Assembly: GCF_001677475.2 (NCBI RefSeq)
Contig: NZ_CP015229.1
Source of the DNA: Escherichia coli
GTDB taxonomy: Bacteria > Pseudomonadota > Gammaproteobacteria > Enterobacterales > Enterobacteriaceae
DNA length: 64,000 nt
Reading direction: 5' to 3' (one strand)
Shown here: positions 41,414-54,466 of the stretch, in pieces
Layout: each line of letters begins with the position of its first letter
Numbering within the stretch: the stretch's first letter is position 1
Program-made: the position numbers and the translations under genes
The notes under the pieces: model-generated
Told to the model about the DNA's origin: nothing
The model's database searches: none
The model's input: the letters and a program-made list of their open reading frames with translations, nothing else

Positions 41414-42046
41414 GTGGCACAACGCGGTGTAAACAAAGTCATCCTGATTGGTACCCTGGGGCAAGACCCGGAGATCAGGTATATACCAAATGGCGGCGCG
41501 GTCGGAAGACTCAGCATCGCAACGAATGAATCATGGCGCGACAAGCAAACGGACCAACAGAAAGAGCAAACAGAATGGCATAAAGTCGTTTTGTTCGGAA
41601 AACTTGCTGAAATTGCGAGTGAGTATTTACGAAAAGGTTCTCAGGTCTACATCGAAGGGAAACTTAAAACCCGTAAGTGGACAGATGACGCCGGTGTAGA
41701 ACGTTACACGACGGAAATTATCGTCAGCCAGGGCGGCACCATGCAAATGATCGGCGCTCGCCGTGACGATTCACAGTCCTCAAATGGCTGGGGGCAATCA
41801 AACCAACCTCAAAACCACCAGCAATACAGTGGTGGCGGTAAACCTCAGAGCAACGCCAATAACGAACCTCCAATGGACTTTGACGACGATATTCAAAAAC
41901 GACTGAAAGAAAAGCGGTGGTCCAGACGCCGACAAAAGCACGAACTCGCTAAAAAACGCCAAAGCTGGCAATGGCACGCGCTTTTCACGAAAAGAACACC
42001 CCGAGGCATTGCTTTCGCTGGTGGGAAAACATTCCTCCCCACCTGA
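41414..42046 (+). CDS. ssb: single-stranded DNA-binding protein with atypical C-terminal extension
   Basis: GTG start; N-terminal OB fold near-identical to the E. coli SSB sequence as recalled, through ...[10 protein letters not shown]; the canonical final PF-stop is replaced by about 50 basic residues ([14 protein letters not shown]...). Confidence 0.85.
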
Positions 42047-42083
42047 AGGCGCAATACATCAAATTTTAAGCAGAGAAAAGACT

Positions 42084-42737
42084 ATGAATAAAATGGCAAC
42101 GAAAGAGCTTTTTAAGTTCCTTCCCAAATACAAAGCTCACAAAATCGTTAGTGCATCGAAAATCAAAGATATCGAGATTATCTCATTGATTGATAATACC
42201 CCTGCTTGTGGCTATATCACATTAATGGACCCCCAAGGCGTAACGGTTCGTGTTGATGCAGCGTTTTTGCAAAAACACCGACCAGATACTGGCGGCTATC
42301 TGCTCGGTTATGAGGACGGTTATCTGTCCTATTCACCAGAAAAAACATTTGAAGAAGGCTTTAGTCGGACTAACGACTTCTTCGAAAATGAGGTATCGCT
42401 TAGCATTGAAGGTCACAATGGGGTGACATTCATTACAGCCAGGGACGTAACTATTGCTGCCGGTGGCATCATTACCACACAAGAAGAAATCGACCTTGAA
42501 GCAGCCGACTTCTCTGACGCGCTAATGTGGTTGAAGGAAGGCAAGAAAGTTGCCCGACGCGAGTGGAAAGGCGAAAAGCAATTCTGCTGGTTAGTTCTCG
42601 CTGGAAGCGTCAATTTACACGGCATTCACGTTCCTTATGGTGACCATTTTGTATTGAAAGATGCACAAAATATGGACAGCGTTTGGTTGCCGTCTGTGGA
42701 TGATTTACTGGCATGTGACTGGTTTGTAGTGGAGTGA
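42084..42737 (+). CDS. hypothetical phage protein with DUF2829-like C-terminal domain
   Basis: track ORF 42009-42737 trimmed to ATG 42084; C-terminal ...ALMWLKEGKKVARREW...DLLACDWFVVE. Confidence 0.5.
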   Translation: MNKMATKELFKFLPKYKAHKIVSASKIKDIEIISLIDNTPACGYITLMDPQGVTVRVDAAFLQKHRPDTGGYLLGYEDGYLSYSPEKTFEEGFSRTNDFFENEVSLSIEGHNGVTFITARDVTIAAGGIITTQEEIDLEAADFSDALMWLKEGKKVARREWKGEKQFCWLVLAGSVNLHGIHVPYGDHFVLKDAQNMDSVWLPSVDDLLACDWFVVE

Positions 42738-42743
42738 TTTAAC

Positions 42744-43526
42744 GTGGAAAATACTAAAGCAATTCAATACCGCCTGCGTAATGGTCAGAGTGTCGAAGTG
42801 ACCATCAATAATGATGGTGTGCCTGGCGAAAAGGTTTCGATCTCTGATCTGGCTATCGAAAAAACCATCATGTGCCACCTTGGCTTTACTGAAGAAGTGA
42901 GCAAAAAGCATGGTGTAGCAATCTGGAGCGCAATGGATACTGGTATGCGCAGATTCATTACTGCTCGTACCCCAGGGATGACCATGATGGACCTCATGCA
43001 GATTGCGCCGCTGTTTGAATGTGAGCCTTTAGATGTATTCAGCAATCCAGCTATCTGCCAGCAGTTATATGGTGAGATGAAACTCGCGGTTACCCCCATT
43101 GTGCTGCATGAAGGATCGCTTGCTGGCGTGTGGAAAGTGGAGCGTATTTCAAGCTACATGCCTTTCCATGTCAACGGCGTAATCACTGGTGAAAATCAAC
43201 CTGTTTCCGTTATAAAGTCAGACCTCAAGCGCGCAATTCTTGAAGCAAGTTGTCGAGTTGTCGGCCTGGGCAAACAGTCTTATGTTTCCTTCCCGGCTGG
43301 CCCTGAAGGCCCGGCAGAAATTCTGATTATGGATGCCGATCTGCTATGGCAAATACAGTTTCTGATTGGCAAAAGCATCATCCGCGCTGAAGAACTCGAT
43401 CAGTACATTACCTGCACGATGACGGATGAAGTCAAAAGTGTGGCTATAGCCAATGCCCGGAACCTATGTCGTGCTGCATTAACAGAACTGCAAGAAAACA
43501 CCACGGAAGAGGTGGAAAGTGATTAA
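42744..43526 (+). CDS. hypothetical protein
   Basis: 260-aa track ORF (GTG start), overlaps the next gene by 8 nt. Confidence 0.55.
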   Translation: MENTKAIQYRLRNGQSVEVTINNDGVPGEKVSISDLAIEKTIMCHLGFTEEVSKKHGVAIWSAMDTGMRRFITARTPGMTMMDLMQIAPLFECEPLDVFSNPAICQQLYGEMKLAVTPIVLHEGSLAGVWKVERISSYMPFHVNGVITGENQPVSVIKSDLKRAILEASCRVVGLGKQSYVSFPAGPEGPAEILIMDADLLWQIQFLIGKSIIRAEELDQYITCTMTDEVKSVAIANARNLCRAALTELQENTTEEVESD

Positions 43527-44613
43527 TCGTATACAGAATGAATCTGCCTGGTTAGCACTGATAGAACGGTATAAAGACAATTGGGAACTGGCAGCAAAAG
43601 AGTTGCTTGATATTGAGTTAACACCTCATCAAGCAAAAATTATTAACGCGATAAAGAACACCGGAGCCAAAGTCACTGCCACCACACCACATGGTATTGG
43701 GGAAACCTCTATTGTGGCAGTGATTAGCATCCTGCAAACAATACTGTATTCGTGTTCCCGTACAGTGGTTGTTTCTCCTGCGATTAACGATAGTCGAAAA
43801 ACAATAATTGACTATATGTTCCGTTATTGGGAGCGAGTTACCCAAAAACACCCTTTTCTTGGCAATTATTTCAGAATACACCCTGACAAAGGGTTGGTGC
43901 ATATCAGTGAAACATGGGGATGCGTCTATATAACCTATTGTCTGAATAACGAAGAGTCTCTGGCTGGTTTTACTGGACCGCACGATCTTTTCATCGTTAT
44001 TAACTCGGCGGAAATCAGCGATCGCGCTCATGCAGTGATAACTGGCAATTTAACCAATTATGACTCGCGCCTGCTGTTGCTGTCGAAACCATCGGAACGC
44101 GAGAAAGGGTACTTTTATGATTCGCATCACCGGTTGGCCCATAGTAAAAACAATCCTGCTGGTTTTTTCACGGCGATAACTCTAAACACAGAGGATTCAC
44201 CTCTCGTTTCTGAAGCATATCTTGAATTCAAAGCCAAAGAGTTTGGTGGACGCAATAGCGATGAATATCGCCGATTGATCTTGGGGAAATTCCCCGGGAT
44301 TCGGGAGTTGATGGAAAAGTCATCTGTTCCCCGTAATATGCACTTCACAATGACTGACGGTAGTAAATGGGTAGTGCCTACGATCGTGATCGCCAAACAC
44401 CATGCGAAACATCACGCTCAAAAACACAACTCCAGCACATTAGACTGGCTGAAGGCCTATACAATACCGTTATTCTCGGCAAACCATAACGCTATAACTG
44501 AATGGGCTAAACAAATCCCCTGGCAGGATGTGGCTGAAGAGGCGTTTGTCGAAAAACCACCAAGAGATTTGCACGAGCACTGTTGGCTGACATCAGAAAA
44601 AAGCTTCTCGTGA
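43519..44613 (+). CDS. terminase-large-subunit-like ATPase paralog (PacB N-terminal domain homolog without nuclease half)
   Basis: 364 aa; shares blocks with PacB at 17154-18638 (LLLLSKPSEREKGYFYDSHHRLA vs [22 protein letters not shown]; FTAITLNTEDSPLV vs [14 protein letters not shown]). Confidence 0.65.
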   Translation: MINRIQNESAWLALIERYKDNWELAAKELLDIELTPHQAKIINAIKNTGAKVTATTPHGIGETSIVAVISILQTILYSCSRTVVVSPAINDSRKTIIDYMFRYWERVTQKHPFLGNYFRIHPDKGLVHISETWGCVYITYCLNNEESLAGFTGPHDLFIVINSAEISDRAHAVITGNLTNYDSRLLLLSKPSEREKGYFYDSHHRLAHSKNNPAGFFTAITLNTEDSPLVSEAYLEFKAKEFGGRNSDEYRRLILGKFPGIRELMEKSSVPRNMHFTMTDGSKWVVPTIVIAKHHAKHHAQKHNSSTLDWLKAYTIPLFSANHNAITEWAKQIPWQDVAEEAFVEKPPRDLHEHCWLTSEKSFS

Positions 44614-44616
44614 GGT

Positions 44617-44646
44617 AAAAATCCCGCCGATTGGCGGGATTTCTTC
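44617..44646. terminator. bidirectional rho-independent terminator
   Basis: ATCCCGCC-GATT-GGCGGGAT stem flanked by A-run and T-rich run between convergent genes. Confidence 0.6.
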
Positions 44647-44953
44647 AATATACGATCTGGTCTACATGATCACCAAAATCATCGTCGTCGTCCTCATCGC
44701 CACCATCTACTGCTGGCCAATCAACAAACCAGCCAGCGTAAAGATGCAGCGTTCGGAGAACATCACTTGCGGGAGCATCAAGGGTGTTAACGAATCCCAT
44801 ATAGCTATTGGGATTTGCTCCAGCTATGGCTTCAGCGATCATGTCCTCGGTAATGTCACCGGAGATAATGCTTAAACGCCCGGAAACTTCTTCATTATCA
44901 TCAAATTCGATAATGGCATCTCCACCTAATGGCGCTGCGATTTTAATCTGCAT
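44645..44953 (-). CDS. small acidic protein at the end of the darA-type operon
   Basis: 102-aa track ORF ending in an Asp-rich tail; overlaps the ddrB-like stop. Confidence 0.5.
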   Translation of the reverse strand: MQIKIAAPLGGDAIIEFDDNEEVSGRLSIISGDITEDMIAEAIAGANPNSYMGFVNTLDAPASDVLRTLHLYAGWFVDWPAVDGGDEDDDDDFGDHVDQIVY

Positions 44954-45789
44954 TATTTAGCTCCTTTGCCACACCTAATAACAGTTCCAGCAATCCGTCA
45001 CCATTCATCAGTGATGCGGCAGCGGCCTCTTTGTCATGATACAACTGAAGAGCCATAGAGAATACTTCCGTTGCTGACGTTTTGGAAATAGTCGGTGATT
45101 TCTGCCGAATTTTCCCGGTGTTACTTACTGAGGCTGGCGGGTATACCTTCGCCATATAAATATTACTCAATCGAGATCTGAAGCACCATTCAGGCTTGCC
45201 ACGCCCACCGATATTGACGAAAGATGGCTTATCCCCTTCAACATTGGCCTTCAGGAATGACCGGGCTTTCTCTAACAAACCAGGGTTACTGTACTCAAGA
45301 TGATGACCCAGCTCGTGCCACAGTGCACTTGCATTTTCATCGTTCAAATTGACAGCAACAACACCATTTAGATTTGCATATGCCCTTCCCTGGTGGTGAA
45401 CTACCTTTGATAAGGTCGATATTTTCCCGCCGGTCAGGCGATAAATATCAGCAAGTTCCTTGCGCAGGTCTATCCCACCATTCTGTCCAGCGCGGGCTTC
45501 TTCCACTTCTTCTGTGATAAAAGAGTCGGCCCACTCAAGAGCTTTTTCTTCAGATACGGATGAGTTTGCGATCGCACTGTTCATGGCAGATAACACTTTC
45601 TCGTGGACCGAACCCATACTTCGCTGATTCATTTGCCAGCGTGTCTGCGGGTTATATGAGAATCGCTTAAGTAGTTGGTCAAGCTGCTCAAGTTCTTCTT
45701 CACTGACATACTTTTTAGCCTCACTATTAGACGTCAACTAGTTTTGCCGACTCGCGCCAACTATACTGGCCGCACCCTTCAGGGCGACA

Positions 45790-46545
45790 TCAAGTCGCGC
45801 TTGTTACTGCCTTCGCTGTCTTTTTCCTGTAGCTTTCCCCTTTCAGTTCGAACATATATCCGTGATGGATCAGCCTGTCTGCCGCAGCCACCGCCATAGT
45901 CTCATCCACGAAGATGCTGCCCCACATGCTGAACGGATGGTTACTGGTTATCACCAGGCTCCCACGTTCATAGCGATGCGCTATTAACTCGAACAGCACA
46001 CCCGTTTCGGCACTATCGCGTTTGACATAGCCAAGATCATCCACCACTATCACCCGGTAGCGATCCAGTTTCAGTAGCAGCTCATTCAGTTTCAACTGAG
46101 CTCTGGCTTTACGTAGTTCCTGCAACAGCTCTCCTGCGCTGTAGAACCGGGCCCGGTAGCCCTGACCTACTACGCCATCCACGATCGCTGCCGCCAGATG
46201 GCTTTTCCCCAACCCGCTGGCTCCGAACAGCAGAACGTTTTCTCCTGCATCAACCCAGTCTGTCGTTTCACAGAGTTGCCGGAACTGAGCTCCATTCAGT
46301 TCCGGCACCTGACTGAAGTCGTATTCGCTCAGCGTTTTGGCAACTGGCAACCGGGCCTCCTTTTTATAACGACGCAGTTTTTCACTCTCGCGCCACAGGA
46401 GTTCTTCATTGCATAGCGTCAGAAGATAGCGCGATGGTGTCCAGCCTTCTGCCAGCGCTCGTTTTTCCAGAGCGTGCCATTCAGCTCCAACTCGTGTCAG
46501 GCGTAGTTTACGCAGGCTATGTTCAAGGTGATGGATATTGCTCAC
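45790..46545 (-). CDS. istB: IS21-family IstB helper ATPase
   Basis: 251 aa, one residue different from copy 1 (DRLIHHG vs DRLLHHG). Confidence 0.92.
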   Translation of the reverse strand: MSNIHHLEHSLRKLRLTRVGAEWHALEKRALAEGWTPSRYLLTLCNEELLWRESEKLRRYKKEARLPVAKTLSEYDFSQVPELNGAQFRQLCETTDWVDAGENVLLFGASGLGKSHLAAAIVDGVVGQGYRARFYSAGELLQELRKARAQLKLNELLLKLDRYRVIVVDDLGYVKRDSAETGVLFELIAHRYERGSLVITSNHPFSMWGSIFVDETMAVAAADRLIHHGYMFELKGESYRKKTAKAVTSAT

Positions 46546-48041
46546 TGCGAACCTCCCTTGCCACGCAGTAGTTGCTCATAACTGCTCAGGTTATGCTGTA
46601 TCACATTGACTACCGGCAACGCCTTTTCTTTTATACCCAGGAAGCGCATCAGCCGGTGCAGATCCACGTTTCCCGGGGTATTCAGCATCTGCTCCATACC
46701 TTTTGCCACGACTGAGATATCGTCGTATCCTGCAGCCAGTTTCAGGGCATGTACCATCAGCCTTCCTGCCATATCGGGCTCCAGATGATTACATAAGCGA
46801 CGCCACAGCCTCCGCCATTCATCGTCCGGCAGGATGTCATTTCTCAGCGTTGCATGGCAGAACGCACCGGGCTTTTTTGCCAGACTGTCGATCACATGTC
46901 GGAAGTCGATACGACGGGCCCGCGTCTTCCCTTTTTCTGGTCTGACGCGAGGGCAGCTCATGACCTCGCTGCTGCCAACGTAACAGCTCAGACGATCGTC
47001 CCATAACCTGACCCGTAACAGTTGACCTACAAGCCGGGAAGGTACGCTGTAGACGACGTGCTTCACATTGATGGTACTGCTGCGACTAACCCTCACAGTC
47101 AGCTCATCATAGTCAGCACTGCGACGAAGCGGCAGCGGTTTCAGATGAAGACGTTCTTCCTTGACCAGATCCTGATTGTTACGGTTGTGCCGCATAACCT
47201 GCTGAGTGATGAAGGCCTGATATTCTTCTATGGTGCTGAAGTCGTTACTGCCCCGCAGTATCAGCGCCTGACAGATACGCCTTTTCAGATGTCCGTGGGC
47301 ACTTTCAACCGAGCCATTTTCGTGGCCCCGACCGGCATTATTGTGTACGCCCTGCATTCCGTAGTGCTGACAGAGAGTAGCATAACGCTCAGTCAGCTCG
47401 CGGCGTCCATCTTCGCCCTGTTGTTTCCATGCTGCCCTCAGGCTGTCCGTTTTATGTTCTACCGGCACTCCGCCCAGTTGTCCGAGGGCTTCCTGCAGGC
47501 CTTCAGCCAGAGCAGAGAAGCTCTCACCACCCAGAACAACCCGCATCCAGCTCCAGTGGCTCCATTCCAGACGGAAGTGATACAACTTATGCGCCAACAA
47601 CTTACCGGCGATGGTGACAACTACACCTTTCAGTTCAGTAAAGTCCGACAGGCCTCGCAGGCCGGGCTGATGTTGCTGGCGGAACATGACCTCCTGCTCT
47701 GTACCATACTGTAGTTTCCATTCGCGAACCCGCCGTTGCATTGTTCTTCGAAGGCTGTTGGGGTACTGGCCGGGATATTTATCCTGTAGCATCTCCAGTA
47801 GAGTTGTTGGTGTCAGAGCCGGCCTCTCTTTCAACAGAGGAACAAGCATGCTGTCCCACACAGCTTCCAGAGGATCTTTGCGTGTGCGCCAGTGCCGAAC
47901 ACTGTTTTTTGCCCACTCTCCTTTTTCGATCCGACGACCAGAACGGACTGAGATACCAGCCTTCATGGCCGAGATATGCTGAGTTATACCTTTCTTACGC
48001 TGAGTCATATAGTAACTGACCTGAGAAGTATTGAGCGTCAC
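46542..48041 (-). CDS. istA: IS21-family IstA transposase (intact)
   Basis: 499 aa, GTG start; continuous frame spanning both fragments of copy 1. Confidence 0.92.
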   Translation of the reverse strand: MTLNTSQVSYYMTQRKKGITQHISAMKAGISVRSGRRIEKGEWAKNSVRHWRTRKDPLEAVWDSMLVPLLKERPALTPTTLLEMLQDKYPGQYPNSLRRTMQRRVREWKLQYGTEQEVMFRQQHQPGLRGLSDFTELKGVVVTIAGKLLAHKLYHFRLEWSHWSWMRVVLGGESFSALAEGLQEALGQLGGVPVEHKTDSLRAAWKQQGEDGRRELTERYATLCQHYGMQGVHNNAGRGHENGSVESAHGHLKRRICQALILRGSNDFSTIEEYQAFITQQVMRHNRNNQDLVKEERLHLKPLPLRRSADYDELTVRVSRSSTINVKHVVYSVPSRLVGQLLRVRLWDDRLSCYVGSSEVMSCPRVRPEKGKTRARRIDFRHVIDSLAKKPGAFCHATLRNDILPDDEWRRLWRRLCNHLEPDMAGRLMVHALKLAAGYDDISVVAKGMEQMLNTPGNVDLHRLMRFLGIKEKALPVVNVIQHNLSSYEQLLRGKGGSQ

Positions 48042-50358
48042 GCCATTTCCTGTTGGATCATGTAAATGACACTCAGGTTACAAAACCGGCCAGAATAATC
48101 GGCGCCAGGCGGACTGAGTTATTGTCGTCTCATACCTCACCAATAATGCCAGGGAGAATATTGCCGTTAGGATTAAACGCTCGCGAAAGGAAGAGTTTCA
48201 GCGCCCCCATGCCCTCCGATGCTTCAATATCACCAATAACCCGGTTAACAATGGCCGCACTCTTCGGATTAGCATCCGCCAACGCTCTGGCTACAATTTG
48301 CAGGGACGATACGACCTCACGCTGCATATCCGTCCTGATCTCATCAATAAACTCTGGCGTTATGCCGTGCTCTTTAAGAATATCCCTGCCTTCCGCCGTT
48401 ACCCCATCGATATCACCGACATGTTTATTAACCCGACTTTGCAATGCCTTAAATGCCTTCAGAATTCCACGGGAATCATCCGCTTTACTAACGGCCTTCC
48501 TGAATGCTGGCAAGAAGTCTGAGTTAACCTCATTTTGTTGATCGGCCCACTGAATGGAGGCTTCTTTCATCTCGTCCAGAGTCAGATCACCCAACGCGGT
48601 ATGGTCTGTGAATATGAGCGACAACCTCTGAACCATTTCTGCCAATGGTGATGCCGAATGCGCCGCGCTAAGGAATGCTTTCACCCTGGTTGGGCGAATG
48701 GAAAACCAGTCAATAGCTGGTGGCATATCTCCGTTTTGTATCGCCTGCGCTATCTCATCAAAGCCGTCGCGCCCAAGGGAGGATGCGTGATTTAACAATC
48801 CGCGAAGTAACGAATTGCTGATACCGAATAATCGGCACCATTTATTCACGTCGGCAACAGGCATTCGAACAAAATGCGCAAGCACTTGTACAAGCTGTTC
48901 ATCCTGGGGATCTGTACGGGAAAGCAGCCTGATCAGATGAATAATGTCTTTGATGCCGGATGCCCGATGTAATAGCAAGCTGGTATATGGAGCAACACCG
49001 TTGTAACTACCGCCGGAAACGGACTCGAAAAGACCGCCGGATATCCCTTGCATGCCTTCGTTTTCCAGTTCCTGAGACACCTGGCGAAGGATATCCTGTA
49101 ACGACACATCGCCGCCGCCAAACATATCCCCCAGCGCCTGGCCCTGGTGCTGTAACTCATCATTGATACGTTGAGCCATCAACTTAAAGGCGGTGGCCAT
49201 ACGCTTCGCGCTACGGTTATTCGCGACGATGAACAACGCGAGTGCTTTCACTTCCGGGGCCGTTTCGCTGAACATATCCCCCTGAGCAATAACATCGGTA
49301 ATATGCTGGCCTGACTCCTTCGATTGCCTTACCAGGTCTACCGCATCTTTCAATGCCGCCAGCGCCTTTTTATCGAGGCTATCCGCTGTCTCAATGCCAT
49401 CAACAATAGTTGTCACAGCCTGCTTGTGCGCTTCTCCTGATAAAGCCTGCATCTGGACAAAATCATTGGCTGCCGCATTAAGCGCCGTCAGAACATTACG
49501 CATATCCGGATCAGGTTCTTCTGCAACCATCCTTACCAGGCGCGCATCCTTATATGCCTTGGCAAAGATCGCGTTTTGTATACGGTCAACAAGTTGCCGC
49601 GTTGGTCGCCCATCTTCCGTTACAAGGCCAGCAGCCTGTGTGGCACCAACTTGCGTCATGAATCCGCGAATAAACGCGTCATTACTGCGGCTAAGCAGAT
49701 CTCCGCTTTCTGACGGATTAAACAGCGCCATCATCGCCGGTGTTATGCTGTCGGCATCAACAAAAGCCTTTTCACTGGCTGCCATTTCCTGAAGATCAGA
49801 AATATTTGAGTCCTTGGCAAACTGAACGCGGTCAACCTTAGTTAACCGGCGGCGCACCAATACAGGAGCCGTCATTGATTCAACCTTTTCAGGTCGTATG
49901 CCGAATTCGGTCGCATGTTCAATCAGGTACTCACGATACCGATCCGCATTGCCGTCCTGATAGGCTTTAATGATTCCCATGGTCCGTCCATTACCTGACT
50001 CAACGGCATTGTCCTCACCAATTATCGGCGCGCCATGGCTGGATAAACCGGAATCGGTAAGCTGAGCAGGCCGCAAATCTTTGGATATCTGGTTAACCTG
50101 AAGAAGGCTGGATGCGCGGGTCCGGTCGCGCGGCTGAAGTTCCTGGGGATAGTCAGGATTAATTTTCCCATCCAGAGTATTGGATACCAAAAGAGCTGAG
50201 GCATCGACGATATCAAACGCTGTTTTTACCTCGTCTCCCTTCGCTGTCACCACATACGAAACCCGCCCATAATCGGGCAGGTTCTTAAGCAGCTCGATCA
50301 GCGTTTCTATGCTGGTGGCAATTACCACCTGATCGCTTAAGCTCATCCCTGTTACGCC

Positions 50359-50724
50359 TTATGCTGCCTCTTCAATGTTGGCGGCTATCCATGCCGCCGT
50401 GTGCTGTTTAACCTGGTCCAGGTCGATGTATGTGCCAACATATTGACTCAAGTCCTGCAAGGTACCGATAAATGCATCTGTGCTCTGATCGACGAATTTA
50501 TCAGCCAGGAAATCAGCAACCAGTTTTGGCACACCATCATGTTCCGAAGGTTGTTTTTCCTCGCCACTACCACCGCCGGACGCGCCGTACCCCATCTGTT
50601 GCATGATCTGGTCAATTTCATCGCTGATATCCAGCAACTCCATGCCACTCGCGGTAGCAGCTTTGGACATCAGAGAATCCAACTTGTCGCTGAGGTCCAT
50701 TAACTCAATAGCTGATAGTGTCAT
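50359..50724 (-). CDS. small acidic protein (at the P1 ddrA position)
   Basis: 121-aa track ORF between the darA-like and ddrB-like genes. Confidence 0.5.
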   Translation of the reverse strand: MTLSAIELMDLSDKLDSLMSKAATASGMELLDISDEIDQIMQQMGYGASGGGSGEEKQPSEHDGVPKLVADFLADKFVDQSTDAFIGTLQDLSQYVGTYIDLDQVKQHTAAWIAANIEEAA

Positions 50725-52640
50725 GCCGCTACCCCCGCTTTCTGGATTGCTACCAGCAGATCAGCCAGGTGGCGAGCAGCGCCATTAACCAGCTCTTCGT
50801 TTTCCTCAAAACGCCCGGCAGCCTGAAGGGCTGCAATCGCTTCCCGGACATTACCCCGGGCGTTACGGATCTCCGCCATGTCAGTGCTTTGCATATCCAT
50901 CACGTTATTGAGATATTCAATGGCTTTATTAGCCTCTGCATCTGCTTCGCTAACCGTTTCATCAGGCTGTGCCGGGGCAGGTTCTGGCTGAGTAATCTCA
51001 CCGACTTCGGCCTGCAATGCATTGATCATGCTCTGCACCATTTTCTCGGTGCCAGCGCCCCCCGGAAACGCAATATTGGGGAAAGTTTTTTGAAACTGAG
51101 TTTTCAGCATTACGCGGAACTCGTCTGGTGAGCTGGTGGCCAGCTCCAGAGCTTTTTGTGCATATTTGCCAAACGGACCATTAGTAAGTGTCTTCGCCAG
51201 GAAGTCGAAAGAATCCTCGCGAGGCAATAACTTCAGGTCGTACTCACTCATTTGCTGATCAGAAAGCGGGGTATCGTAAGTAGCAATGCCGTAGCGTGCA
51301 TATTCATAATACGGGTCACCTTCATCAGGGCGCGGCAGAATTGCTTTGTTACCTTCAGGTATTGCGCCAGGGGCCGCCGGACGCATTTGCAGGGCATATC
51401 GATATGCACCTACAGAGACTTCTGGTTCAGGCGAAGAGCTACCGGTATCCTCCGCTGGTTCAGGTTCGACGTTTTCCGGTTTATGTTCTTCTGGTTGGAC
51501 CAGGTATTCCGATACATTACCCGCTTTATAGGCTTTAAACAGCTTGCCGATCGCATCTGCCATGTCCACACCCTGTATGGATTTAGCCTTGATCATGTAC
51601 ACGCTGCCATCCGAATCGGTTAACTGGATATACCCTTCGCCGTCCTCAATGAATTGCTTCATTGATGCTCCATTACTGAGCGTCACTTCCCCGTTCATAT
51701 GCATACGATTTTTGATACTGGCAAGGCGATCCGTCAGCGCGCGCGAGTGCCCACCAGTCATCCCCGCTGGATCAATGGTATCGCGCCCACCTGTGCGATT
51801 GAGCTGATCAATCTCCGTCTGCAAACGCTCATTCTCTTCATAAAGAGAATCCGCTTCCGATGCAACAGCGTTAATTTTCTGCTCCAGATCTACCTTCTGC
51901 CCTTCTACCGCTGCCACCTGATCCGCGAGGTCGCTCATGGCATCCTCTTTCTGGTCACTGTCAGCCTGTAGTTGGGTTATTTCATCAACCAGGGCTTTTT
52001 TCTTCTTCTGCGCACGCTGGAATTTTGCCGAGTTTTTCTCTGCAAGGTTGGCAAGTTTCATGGTGACCTGCGCCAGCGTCATATCACGTCCACTCATCGG
52101 AGCAACGGTGTGAGTAACGTCTTTTTTATTCAGTAAGAACTGGAAAGCAACCAGCGTATCGCTATTGGTGATCCGGTTTTCCGCTGTCGGGCTATGAAAC
52201 AGAATGCTGATAGTCTGACCATCACTGAGCGGAATAATGGCTGGCAGGACCGGCAGCCCGTTAACGTTACGTGCCCGGCCAATTTCAGCACCGCCGATCG
52301 CGCGCGCGCCGCTCTGGGCCACCTCCCCCGTTTTATCACTCCCCGCAGAGATTCCGGTACCATTCAGCTTCTGGTTCAATGCCCGGACAAATGCCTGCAT
52401 GGTCCGGTGTAACTGCAAACGAGTAGAACTAATCGCCTCCAGTAAATCCGTAGCACACCAGTGGATCGGCGTGTCATAGAAGAACGTAGCCTCGATTTCC
52501 TCCAGGGTGTTGGATTCCGTCATCAGATAGCGGTCCTCACCGGCCATTAATGCGCGATATTCATCATCAGTCACTGGCGGGGGAAGCACGTCAAGCCCAG
52601 GCTTGATCGTCACCCCTTTATTGATATTTAACTGTTCCAT
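50721..52640 (-). CDS. DarA-like internal head/antirestriction protein
   Basis: 639 aa with central coiled coil; follows the holin/antiholin pair as in the P1 darA operon; assignment by size and order. Confidence 0.6.
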   Translation of the reverse strand: MEQLNINKGVTIKPGLDVLPPPVTDDEYRALMAGEDRYLMTESNTLEEIEATFFYDTPIHWCATDLLEAISSTRLQLHRTMQAFVRALNQKLNGTGISAGSDKTGEVAQSGARAIGGAEIGRARNVNGLPVLPAIIPLSDGQTISILFHSPTAENRITNSDTLVAFQFLLNKKDVTHTVAPMSGRDMTLAQVTMKLANLAEKNSAKFQRAQKKKKALVDEITQLQADSDQKEDAMSDLADQVAAVEGQKVDLEQKINAVASEADSLYEENERLQTEIDQLNRTGGRDTIDPAGMTGGHSRALTDRLASIKNRMHMNGEVTLSNGASMKQFIEDGEGYIQLTDSDGSVYMIKAKSIQGVDMADAIGKLFKAYKAGNVSEYLVQPEEHKPENVEPEPAEDTGSSSPEPEVSVGAYRYALQMRPAAPGAIPEGNKAILPRPDEGDPYYEYARYGIATYDTPLSDQQMSEYDLKLLPREDSFDFLAKTLTNGPFGKYAQKALELATSSPDEFRVMLKTQFQKTFPNIAFPGGAGTEKMVQSMINALQAEVGEITQPEPAPAQPDETVSEADAEANKAIEYLNNVMDMQSTDMAEIRNARGNVREAIAALQAAGRFEENEELVNGAARHLADLLVAIQKAGVAA

Positions 52641-52641
52641 G

Positions 52642-53253
52642 TTAATTTCCTGCTTTCAGTTGCTTAAGACGACGTTTGAGTTCGCCATTCCGTGCCTTTT
52701 CGTTATTGAGTCGGCCCGTCTCCTTATCCAGCTTCGCCCGCAAATCAGTGATCTGCTGTTGATTGAAAGACACCGAATTCTGCGCGGACTTATAAGCGGC
52801 AACCACCTGAGCATTCCGCTGTTTTGCTTCTTGCAGGCGCTGAAAGTTGGATTTAACTGCCGGTTTCTTGTCTACCGGATTGGCAACACGCTTCGCTTTG
52901 GCGATCAGTGATTTCTGGAATTTTGCGGAGTTTTTGCGGGCCGCCTGTCCCATGACGGTACCAAGCGTCTTGATATCCGGCGACTGAGCGTTAGGAATAG
53001 CTTTTCCATTCAGTTTCACAGACGATATATCGCCAGTATCGTTTACCTGTATGGCAAGAATTTGTCCGTCGTTAAGAACCAGCTTTGCGGTTTTAACTTT
53101 AACGCCATCTTTCGTTGTTGCGCGGTTGCTGGAGTCAACCTCAATTACCGTAACACCGGTTTTATTGATCGCCGCGATAAGGGATTTCAGCCCCTTTTCA
53201 TTAACCTGGTCAAAATCGACCGTTGCATACTTATTTTTCGTCATCTGACACAT
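52642..53253 (-). CDS. hypothetical protein (at the P1 hdf position)
   Basis: 203-aa track ORF between the lydB-like and darA-like genes. Confidence 0.5.
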   Translation of the reverse strand: MCQMTKNKYATVDFDQVNEKGLKSLIAAINKTGVTVIEVDSSNRATTKDGVKVKTAKLVLNDGQILAIQVNDTGDISSVKLNGKAIPNAQSPDIKTLGTVMGQAARKNSAKFQKSLIAKAKRVANPVDKKPAVKSNFQRLQEAKQRNAQVVAAYKSAQNSVSFNQQQITDLRAKLDKETGRLNNEKARNGELKRRLKQLKAGN

Positions 53254-54000: not shown

Positions 54001-54466
54001 AAGTTCCCTCCTACGTTGTCAGGAGGTAATGGTATGCAAAGTAACTTCTCATCTGGTTGTTCATAATTTGCCAATACATTCGTAAATCAAGTGAAAAACC
54101 CATATTTTGGTTATTCTTAATACAAAATGGCTATTCCAACTACATATCAAAAAAGCAACCACATTCAAAAATGAGTTTCCCCACTGAACTTCTGCAAGAC
54201 AAAAACCAACAAAACCACCTTTTATGGCAAGCAGCCATGCTTCAAGCCAATGTAAAAAACATGGCTTATAAGCTCCACGCCTAACTCCAGTAAGAAATAA
54301 ATAGGTTCCACTAATAATGGACATTAAAAAAATCAAAATCTGCATAAGCTCCTCCCGGATCTAACAAAAATCAAGCAGGAACCTATTCAGATTGTTATTT
54401 CTGTGCATAACGCTTTGTTCTTTAAAATTCGCAGACTCATAAGAACAACGCATTAGAGTAAAAATC

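Follow-up and report, generated by a model that had tools for sequence, protein, structure and literature searches.

DdrB belongs to the Dar (defence against restriction) system of bacteriophage P1, in which it is incorporated into the virion as a head protein and affects type I restriction (PMC9024508, PMC12810830). The protein is reportedly trimmed to ~76 kDa (~700 aa) before packaging, and its C-terminal part, assigned by Iyer et al. as a metallopeptidase (MPTase), is predicted to carry out this trimming (PMC5512222); the P1 annotation also describes the C-terminal part as a 'possible metallopeptidase'. In a genome-wide CRISPR interference (CRISPRi) screen of P1, ddrB, the internal gene iddB and the downstream gene hxr score as non-essential (PMC10695390). 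Here, we analysed a stretch of 64,000 nucleotides (nt) of Escherichia coli DNA (contig NZ_CP015229.1, hereafter the window), in which a P1-like ddrB gene is split by the insertion sequence (IS) ISEc10. Very probably, ISEc10 transposed into codon 737/738 of ddrB on a P1-like phage-plasmid, with the consequences for DdrB, for hxr and for the phage that are set out below.

An earlier note on this DNA had placed an IS21-family element inside a ddrB-like gene of the darA operon, and our analysis bears out both the element and its location. The insert occupies positions 45725-48134 (2,410 bp) on the minus strand, with its two genes running in the same direction as ddrB. The first, istA (46542-48041, minus strand), encodes an intact IS21-family transposase of 499 aa that reaches 226 bits against NF033546 (transpos_IS21, cut-off 160), while istB (45790-46545, minus strand), which overlaps the istA stop by 4 bp in the list of open reading frames (ORFs), encodes an intact AAA+ helper ATPase of 251 aa with 267 bits against NF038214 (IS21_help_AAA, cut-off 200). 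The termini of the element read TATTAGACG...CGTCTCATA, written also as TATTAGACGTCA... and ...TGTCGTCTCATA. They form imperfect terminal inverted repeats with 48-nt arms that are 71% complementary (left, istA-proximal, 48087-48134; right, istB-distal, 45725-45772), and among the first 50 positions 34 match. Matches that cover at least 80% of the 2,410-bp insert occur in 560 E. coli records, the best of which span its full 2,410 bp with 99.0-99.9% identity. We took the name from the RefSeq/PGAP labels 'IS21-like element ISEc10 family' on istA and istB of matching copies (99.9% nucleotide identity); judged by these matches, the insert is the known ISEc10, present as a complete copy. At its istB-distal tip we also observed an outward-facing TTGACG (45732-45737, minus strand), 7 nt from the end, which recalls the IS21 -35 element of tandem-copy junction promoters.

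Two copies of CCTCAC directly abut the element, one at 45719-45724 beside the ddrB 3' fragment and one at 48135-48140 beside the 5' fragment, both located in the raw sequence by script. Local BLAST of the P1 locus against the window gave two gap-free alignments whose P1 coordinates share exactly 6 bp, and P1 therefore has a single copy of the target sequence. Are the CCTCAC repeats a true target duplication? Target duplications of the IS21 family are 4-8 bp long. We fetched six other ISEc10 copies from unrelated chromosomal and plasmid contexts and found that the homology ends at the identical first and last base in 6/6 cases. Four of the six carry target duplications of 5, 5, 6 and 7 bp, and the remaining two, which occupy the same site in two strains, carry none. 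Because the ends of the IS are fixed by these six copies independently of the ddrB locus, CCTCAC is a true target duplication, as had been proposed; the probability of a 6-bp match by chance at fixed ends is 1/4096. The ISEc10 insertion is exact, and P1 represents the empty site.

Upon deletion of the IS and one CCTCAC copy from the sequence, the two flanking ORFs join into one continuous frame of 995 aa, just as the earlier note had anticipated, and this frame aligns colinearly with P1 DdrB (995 aa; NC_005856, P1_gp022) with 981/995 identical residues and 0 gaps. Both fragments match phrog_2299 colinearly as well, at profile positions 1-737 and 737-995 of 995; no NCBIfam family was found for either of them. 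The cautious label 'ddrB-like' was thus right about the family and can be sharpened, since at 99% amino acid identity to P1 the interrupted gene is, by its sequence, ddrB itself. The 5' part is a 738-aa ORF (48130-50346, minus strand) that ends within the first bases of the IS. Its 3' end on the minus strand reads ATT ATT GGT GAG GTA TGA, with the final five bases (TA TGA) derived from the IS, so that the ddrB translation stop falls 5 nt into the element; the upstream product therefore consists of DdrB 1-737 plus one foreign valine. The 3' part (DdrB 737-995; 44943-45724, minus strand) has no start codon of its own. In the ORF list it is extended to a 264-aa ORF (44943-45737, minus strand) by a TTG and three more codons borrowed from the IS, and its start on the minus strand reads TTG ACG TCT AAT A/GT GAG GCT, where the slash marks the end of the IS and the IS-derived part comprises one base in addition to the four borrowed codons that had been described. 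The antisense ORF iddB (annotated in P1 as 'internal to ddrB', 132 aa) is conserved at 49394-49792 on the plus strand and is left intact by the IS.

The placement in the darA operon is equally clear from the alignment with P1. On both sides of the IS, the sequence is 98-99% identical to P1 and to many P1-like phages and plasmids, which lack the IS, and the whole operon, LPdar-lydA-lydB-hdf-darA-ddrA-ddrB-hxr, aligns gap-free with P1 apart from the IS. The late promoter LPdar (54029-54047, minus strand, 19 nt) is an exact string match to the feature annotated in P1 and drives lydA, lydB, hdf, darA, ddrA, ddrB and now also the co-oriented IS. On the same strand, hdf (52642-53253, 203 aa) and ddrA (50359-50724, 121 aa) are intact by comparison with P1, as is darA (50721-52640, 639 aa), for which DarA_N and DarA_C were found on an identical contig. 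The last gene of the operon, hxr (44645-44953, minus strand, 102 aa), encodes a protein with 100/102 residues identical to P1 Hxr, and its start codon, ATG, and the stop of ddrB overlap by 11 bp, the same as in P1. The neighbouring DNA contains darB, prt, pro, lyz and ssb in the P1 order. By these matches, the window is a P1-like (Punavirus) phage-plasmid.

Which part of DdrB is separated from the rest? Using residues 737-995 as query, an exhaustive representative search returned 392 homologues, and the HExxH motif was found at the same place in 40/40 homologues inspected. In an alignment of 29 sequences with 22-38% identity to the query, the residues H136, E137, H140, E143, E178 and E219 (fragment numbering) are invariant. 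The motif itself, HELGHH, corresponds to DdrB residues 872-877 and lies in the 3' fragment, in agreement with the earlier note, which had stated that the HELGHH-containing C-terminal domain is lost from the main product. An AlphaFold model of the fragment has a predicted local distance difference test score (pLDDT) of 89.3 and a predicted template modelling score (pTM) of 0.85. Foldseek returned no matches with this model, a PDB sequence search with the fragment gave a chance match only, and a word-indexed protein search gave near-identical fragments only. The modelled fold and the motif support a zincin-like domain, for which catalysis is predicted. The homologues start to align ~30-50 residues into the 3' fragment; the IS thus sits just upstream of the zincin-like domain and cleanly separates it from the rest of the protein. 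The retained 5' part contains the DdrB-ParB domain PF18763 (aa 36-167, E = 6e-39 in Pfam), so that this N-terminal domain is still present in the truncated product, whereas the zincin-like HExxH domain at the C terminus is lost.

We propose that the IS21-family proteins IstA, a DDE transposase, and IstB, an AAA+ target-selecting ATPase, inserted ISEc10 into ddrB, whereby a staggered strand transfer would have generated the CCTCAC duplication. The computed mass of the truncated product is 80.3 kDa, compared with 76.3 kDa for DdrB 1-700, and the truncated DdrB would thus be close in size to mature DdrB, provided that it is the N-terminal piece that enters the virion. Since the only IS-derived start of the 3' fragment is a TTG, upstream of which we found no Shine-Dalgarno sequence, this fragment is probably not translated efficiently. 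As a further consequence, hxr would lose its translational coupling, because its ATG overlaps the ddrB stop, and, lying behind ~0.8 kb of RNA that would be left untranslated, it is probably under-expressed. In a consensus scan, the minus strand yielded no sigma-70-like promoter, and no intrinsic terminator of a convincing kind was found where the IS ends on its 3' side. Given the co-orientation of the IS, late transcripts that start at LPdar would probably extend across istAB as far as the ddrB 3' fragment and hxr, and Rho may attenuate them on the way.

The earlier note had also raised the prospect of polar effects on downstream genes and of a change in head-protein packaging. A polar effect is possible for hxr, but not for other genes, since hxr is the only gene downstream of ddrB in the operon and the next ORF is convergent. 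A severe effect on packaging is not expected, given that neither ddrB nor hxr is essential in P1; for the same reason the phage should be viable. The expected phenotype would be a shifted protection profile against type I restriction with no loss of infectivity.

A BLAST search of the IS against the window revealed a second ISEc10 copy (2266-4728, minus strand, 2,463 bp) in the first codons of pmgM, a gene that is likewise non-essential in the P1 CRISPRi screen (PMC10695390). This copy differs from the one in ddrB by one single-nucleotide polymorphism (SNP), which exchanges Ile for Leu in IstB, and by a tandem duplication of 53 bp, through which istA is frameshifted and broken into pieces of 233 aa and 271 aa. 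The duplicated istA variant was not seen among the complete E. coli genome matches listed, all of which had the unduplicated 68-bp version. The second copy has its own 6-bp target duplication, GAAGAG, and its rejoined flanks match P1 in a single stretch that spans pmgL and pmgM. That one replicon holds two insertions, each with a target duplication, suggests that ISEc10 is active in transposition, and the copy in ddrB has both of its ORFs intact. The two copies lie in direct orientation 41 kb apart, which makes an IS-mediated deletion or a composite mobilisation of the intervening segment possible; a phage-plasmid of this architecture would be prone to such events.

How widely is the allele spread? 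The empty ddrB site is found in P1 and in hundreds of P1-like plasmids. Among the INPHARED phages, the PLSDB plasmids and 5,426 complete E. coli genomes, no record has the IS at the ddrB site, and none covers at least 80% of the query. In a large protein collection, we found the exact 738-aa and 264-aa junction products, each on about six contigs; the 264-aa product has been deposited in GenBank from an E. coli plasmid, as the 'hypothetical protein' QTP16609.1. Contigs of GCA_002516285.1 and of SRR3929499 (Logan assembly) extend from unique P1 DNA through CCTCAC and into the ends of the IS, and they match the window over 4.2-6.8 kb with 100% identity, so independently assembled reads contain the repeats too. 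All contigs bearing the allele may derive from one clone. The earlier note had called the insertion probably recent. This stands in evolutionary terms, yet the insertion is not private to this sequence.

The presence of two near-identical ISEc10 copies in the window is a situation prone to assembler error, and the repeated IS could in principle have been misplaced in ddrB during assembly. We regard this as extremely improbable, as a separate, perfect 6-bp target duplication borders each of the two copies and the flanking sequences join up exactly as in P1. Moreover, both ddrB junctions recur with 100% identity in the separately assembled short-read contigs, from unique DNA into the IS ends, and these contigs rule out a misassembly of the ddrB junctions. 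A different explanation would take the two insertions in one element, in ddrB and pmgM, together with the frameshifting 53-bp duplication in one IS, as signs that ddrB has long been inactive and that the element is a decaying, non-inducible plasmid remnant. Such an old pseudogene is very unlikely: both ddrB fragments are free of additional stops and frameshifts, the identity to P1 amounts to 99.1% in the 3' fragment and, if anything, exceeds the 98.3% found elsewhere in the operon, and apart from the 53-bp duplication the two IS copies differ by one SNP. Furthermore, the other genes of the operon are all intact, and the genes that were hit are non-essential in P1.

Could the truncated gene instead be a selected separation-of-function allele, in which loss of the peptidase domain or of the whole DdrB function is advantageous, for example through better EcoB/EcoK-type protection? 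Deletion of ddrB reportedly decreases the sensitivity to EcoB/EcoK. One source counts DdrB among proteins that 'confer sensitivity' to EcoB/EcoK (PMC12810830). The position of the cut, ~30-50 residues upstream of the point where the zincin homologues begin to align and ~37 residues past the ~700-aa mature size, and the occurrence of the allele on about six contigs would fit this explanation. However, a neutral insertion in a non-essential gene would equally persist in a few related isolates, the comparable contigs are identical to the window and may be one clone, and hundreds of P1-like plasmids keep ddrB intact, which together make a selected allele unlikely. An extended version, in which DdrB 1-737 mimics the mature 76-kDa form without the zincin-like domain and alters or possibly improves EcoB/EcoK-type protection, LPdar couples the transposase to prophage induction, and the spread reflects selection, appears quite unlikely to us. 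The right end of IS21 carries a -35 element, and the TTG of the TTGACG at the ISEc10 tip also opens the 264-aa ORF. The IS might accordingly provide both an outward promoter and a start codon, from which the zincin-like domain and hxr would be expressed as a novel product in their own right. We largely rejected an outward promoter within the IS: the consensus scan gave no sigma-70-like candidate on the minus strand, no fitting -10 was found in the ddrB flank, the best candidate being AAGTAT (3/6) at a distance of 18 nt, and the TTG lacks a Shine-Dalgarno sequence. Expression of such a product is thus highly improbable, and a plain ISEc10 transposition that truncates ddrB remains the reading that we favour.

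Further observations concern hxr and the DNA adjoining it. Hxr is annotated as 'possible repressor, Xre homologue', yet the protein is extremely acidic, with an isoelectric point of 4.05, 23 Asp/Glu compared with 3 Lys/Arg and a DEDDDDD run. No NCBIfam family was found for it, and its only match was to a PHROG of unknown function. In its appearance, Hxr is closer to an acidic or DNA-mimic-type protein than to a helix-turn-helix repressor. At 42009-44613, the IS1/isaB region of P1 is replaced by other accessory ORFs. These comprise a Tad2-like ORF (PF11195/DUF2829) after ssb, a 260-aa IsaA-related ORF with 94% nucleotide identity to the 3' part of P1 isaA, and a 364-aa ORF with a weak match to terminase-large-subunit-like ATPases (phrog_2, 3.6e-9). 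PADLOC gave no match for the accessory ORFs in this region.

Beyond the earlier note, our analysis adds the second ISEc10 copy, the identical junctions in independent drafts and the truncation near the reported mature size of DdrB. The value of these results lies mainly in annotation, as the 738-aa and 264-aa 'hypothetical proteins' are the halves of one IS-disrupted ddrB. In addition, the allele could be used as a natural mutant to ask whether the zincin-like domain is needed for the processing and packaging of the ParB-like part, as the published prediction holds, and to examine the contribution of hxr. Our results leave the present picture of IS21 elements and of the Dar system unchanged.

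Compared with the ISEc10 copies in E. coli RefSeq genomes, the copy in ddrB shares 99.0-99.9% nucleotide identity over 2,410 bp, identical ends, the istA/istB pair and target duplications within the range of the other copies (5-7 bp). It differs in its insertion site only, as the ddrB site is occupied in no record of the three annotated collections. Compared with ddrB of P1, the gene retains 981/995 identical residues once the IS is removed, and the operon, the hxr overlap and LPdar are the same, whereas in the window the gene is split after codon 737, with the HExxH domain apart from the ParB-like part. Mobile elements are tolerated in the same operon elsewhere. In RCS47 (3617-4825), SJ46, vB_EcoM-813R1 and many plasmids, we observed an extra 1.3 kb with an IS200/IS605-type insQ/TnpB element in the ddrA-ddrB spacer, which is otherwise 12 bp long. 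This element is intergenic, lies in the opposite orientation and leaves ddrB intact, whereas the ISEc10 copy in the window is intragenic and co-oriented. Since the insQ/TnpB element is present in many P1 relatives, the operon is a recurrent landing site for mobile elements. P1 itself carries a resident IS, IS1, in a non-essential region, the isaA/isaB locus, but this IS belongs to another family and sits at another locus, the one that is replaced by accessory ORFs in the window. ISEc10, P1 ddrB and the Dar operon are all already known, and the event that joins them here is a standard outcome of IS21-family transposition, an ordinary gene disruption.

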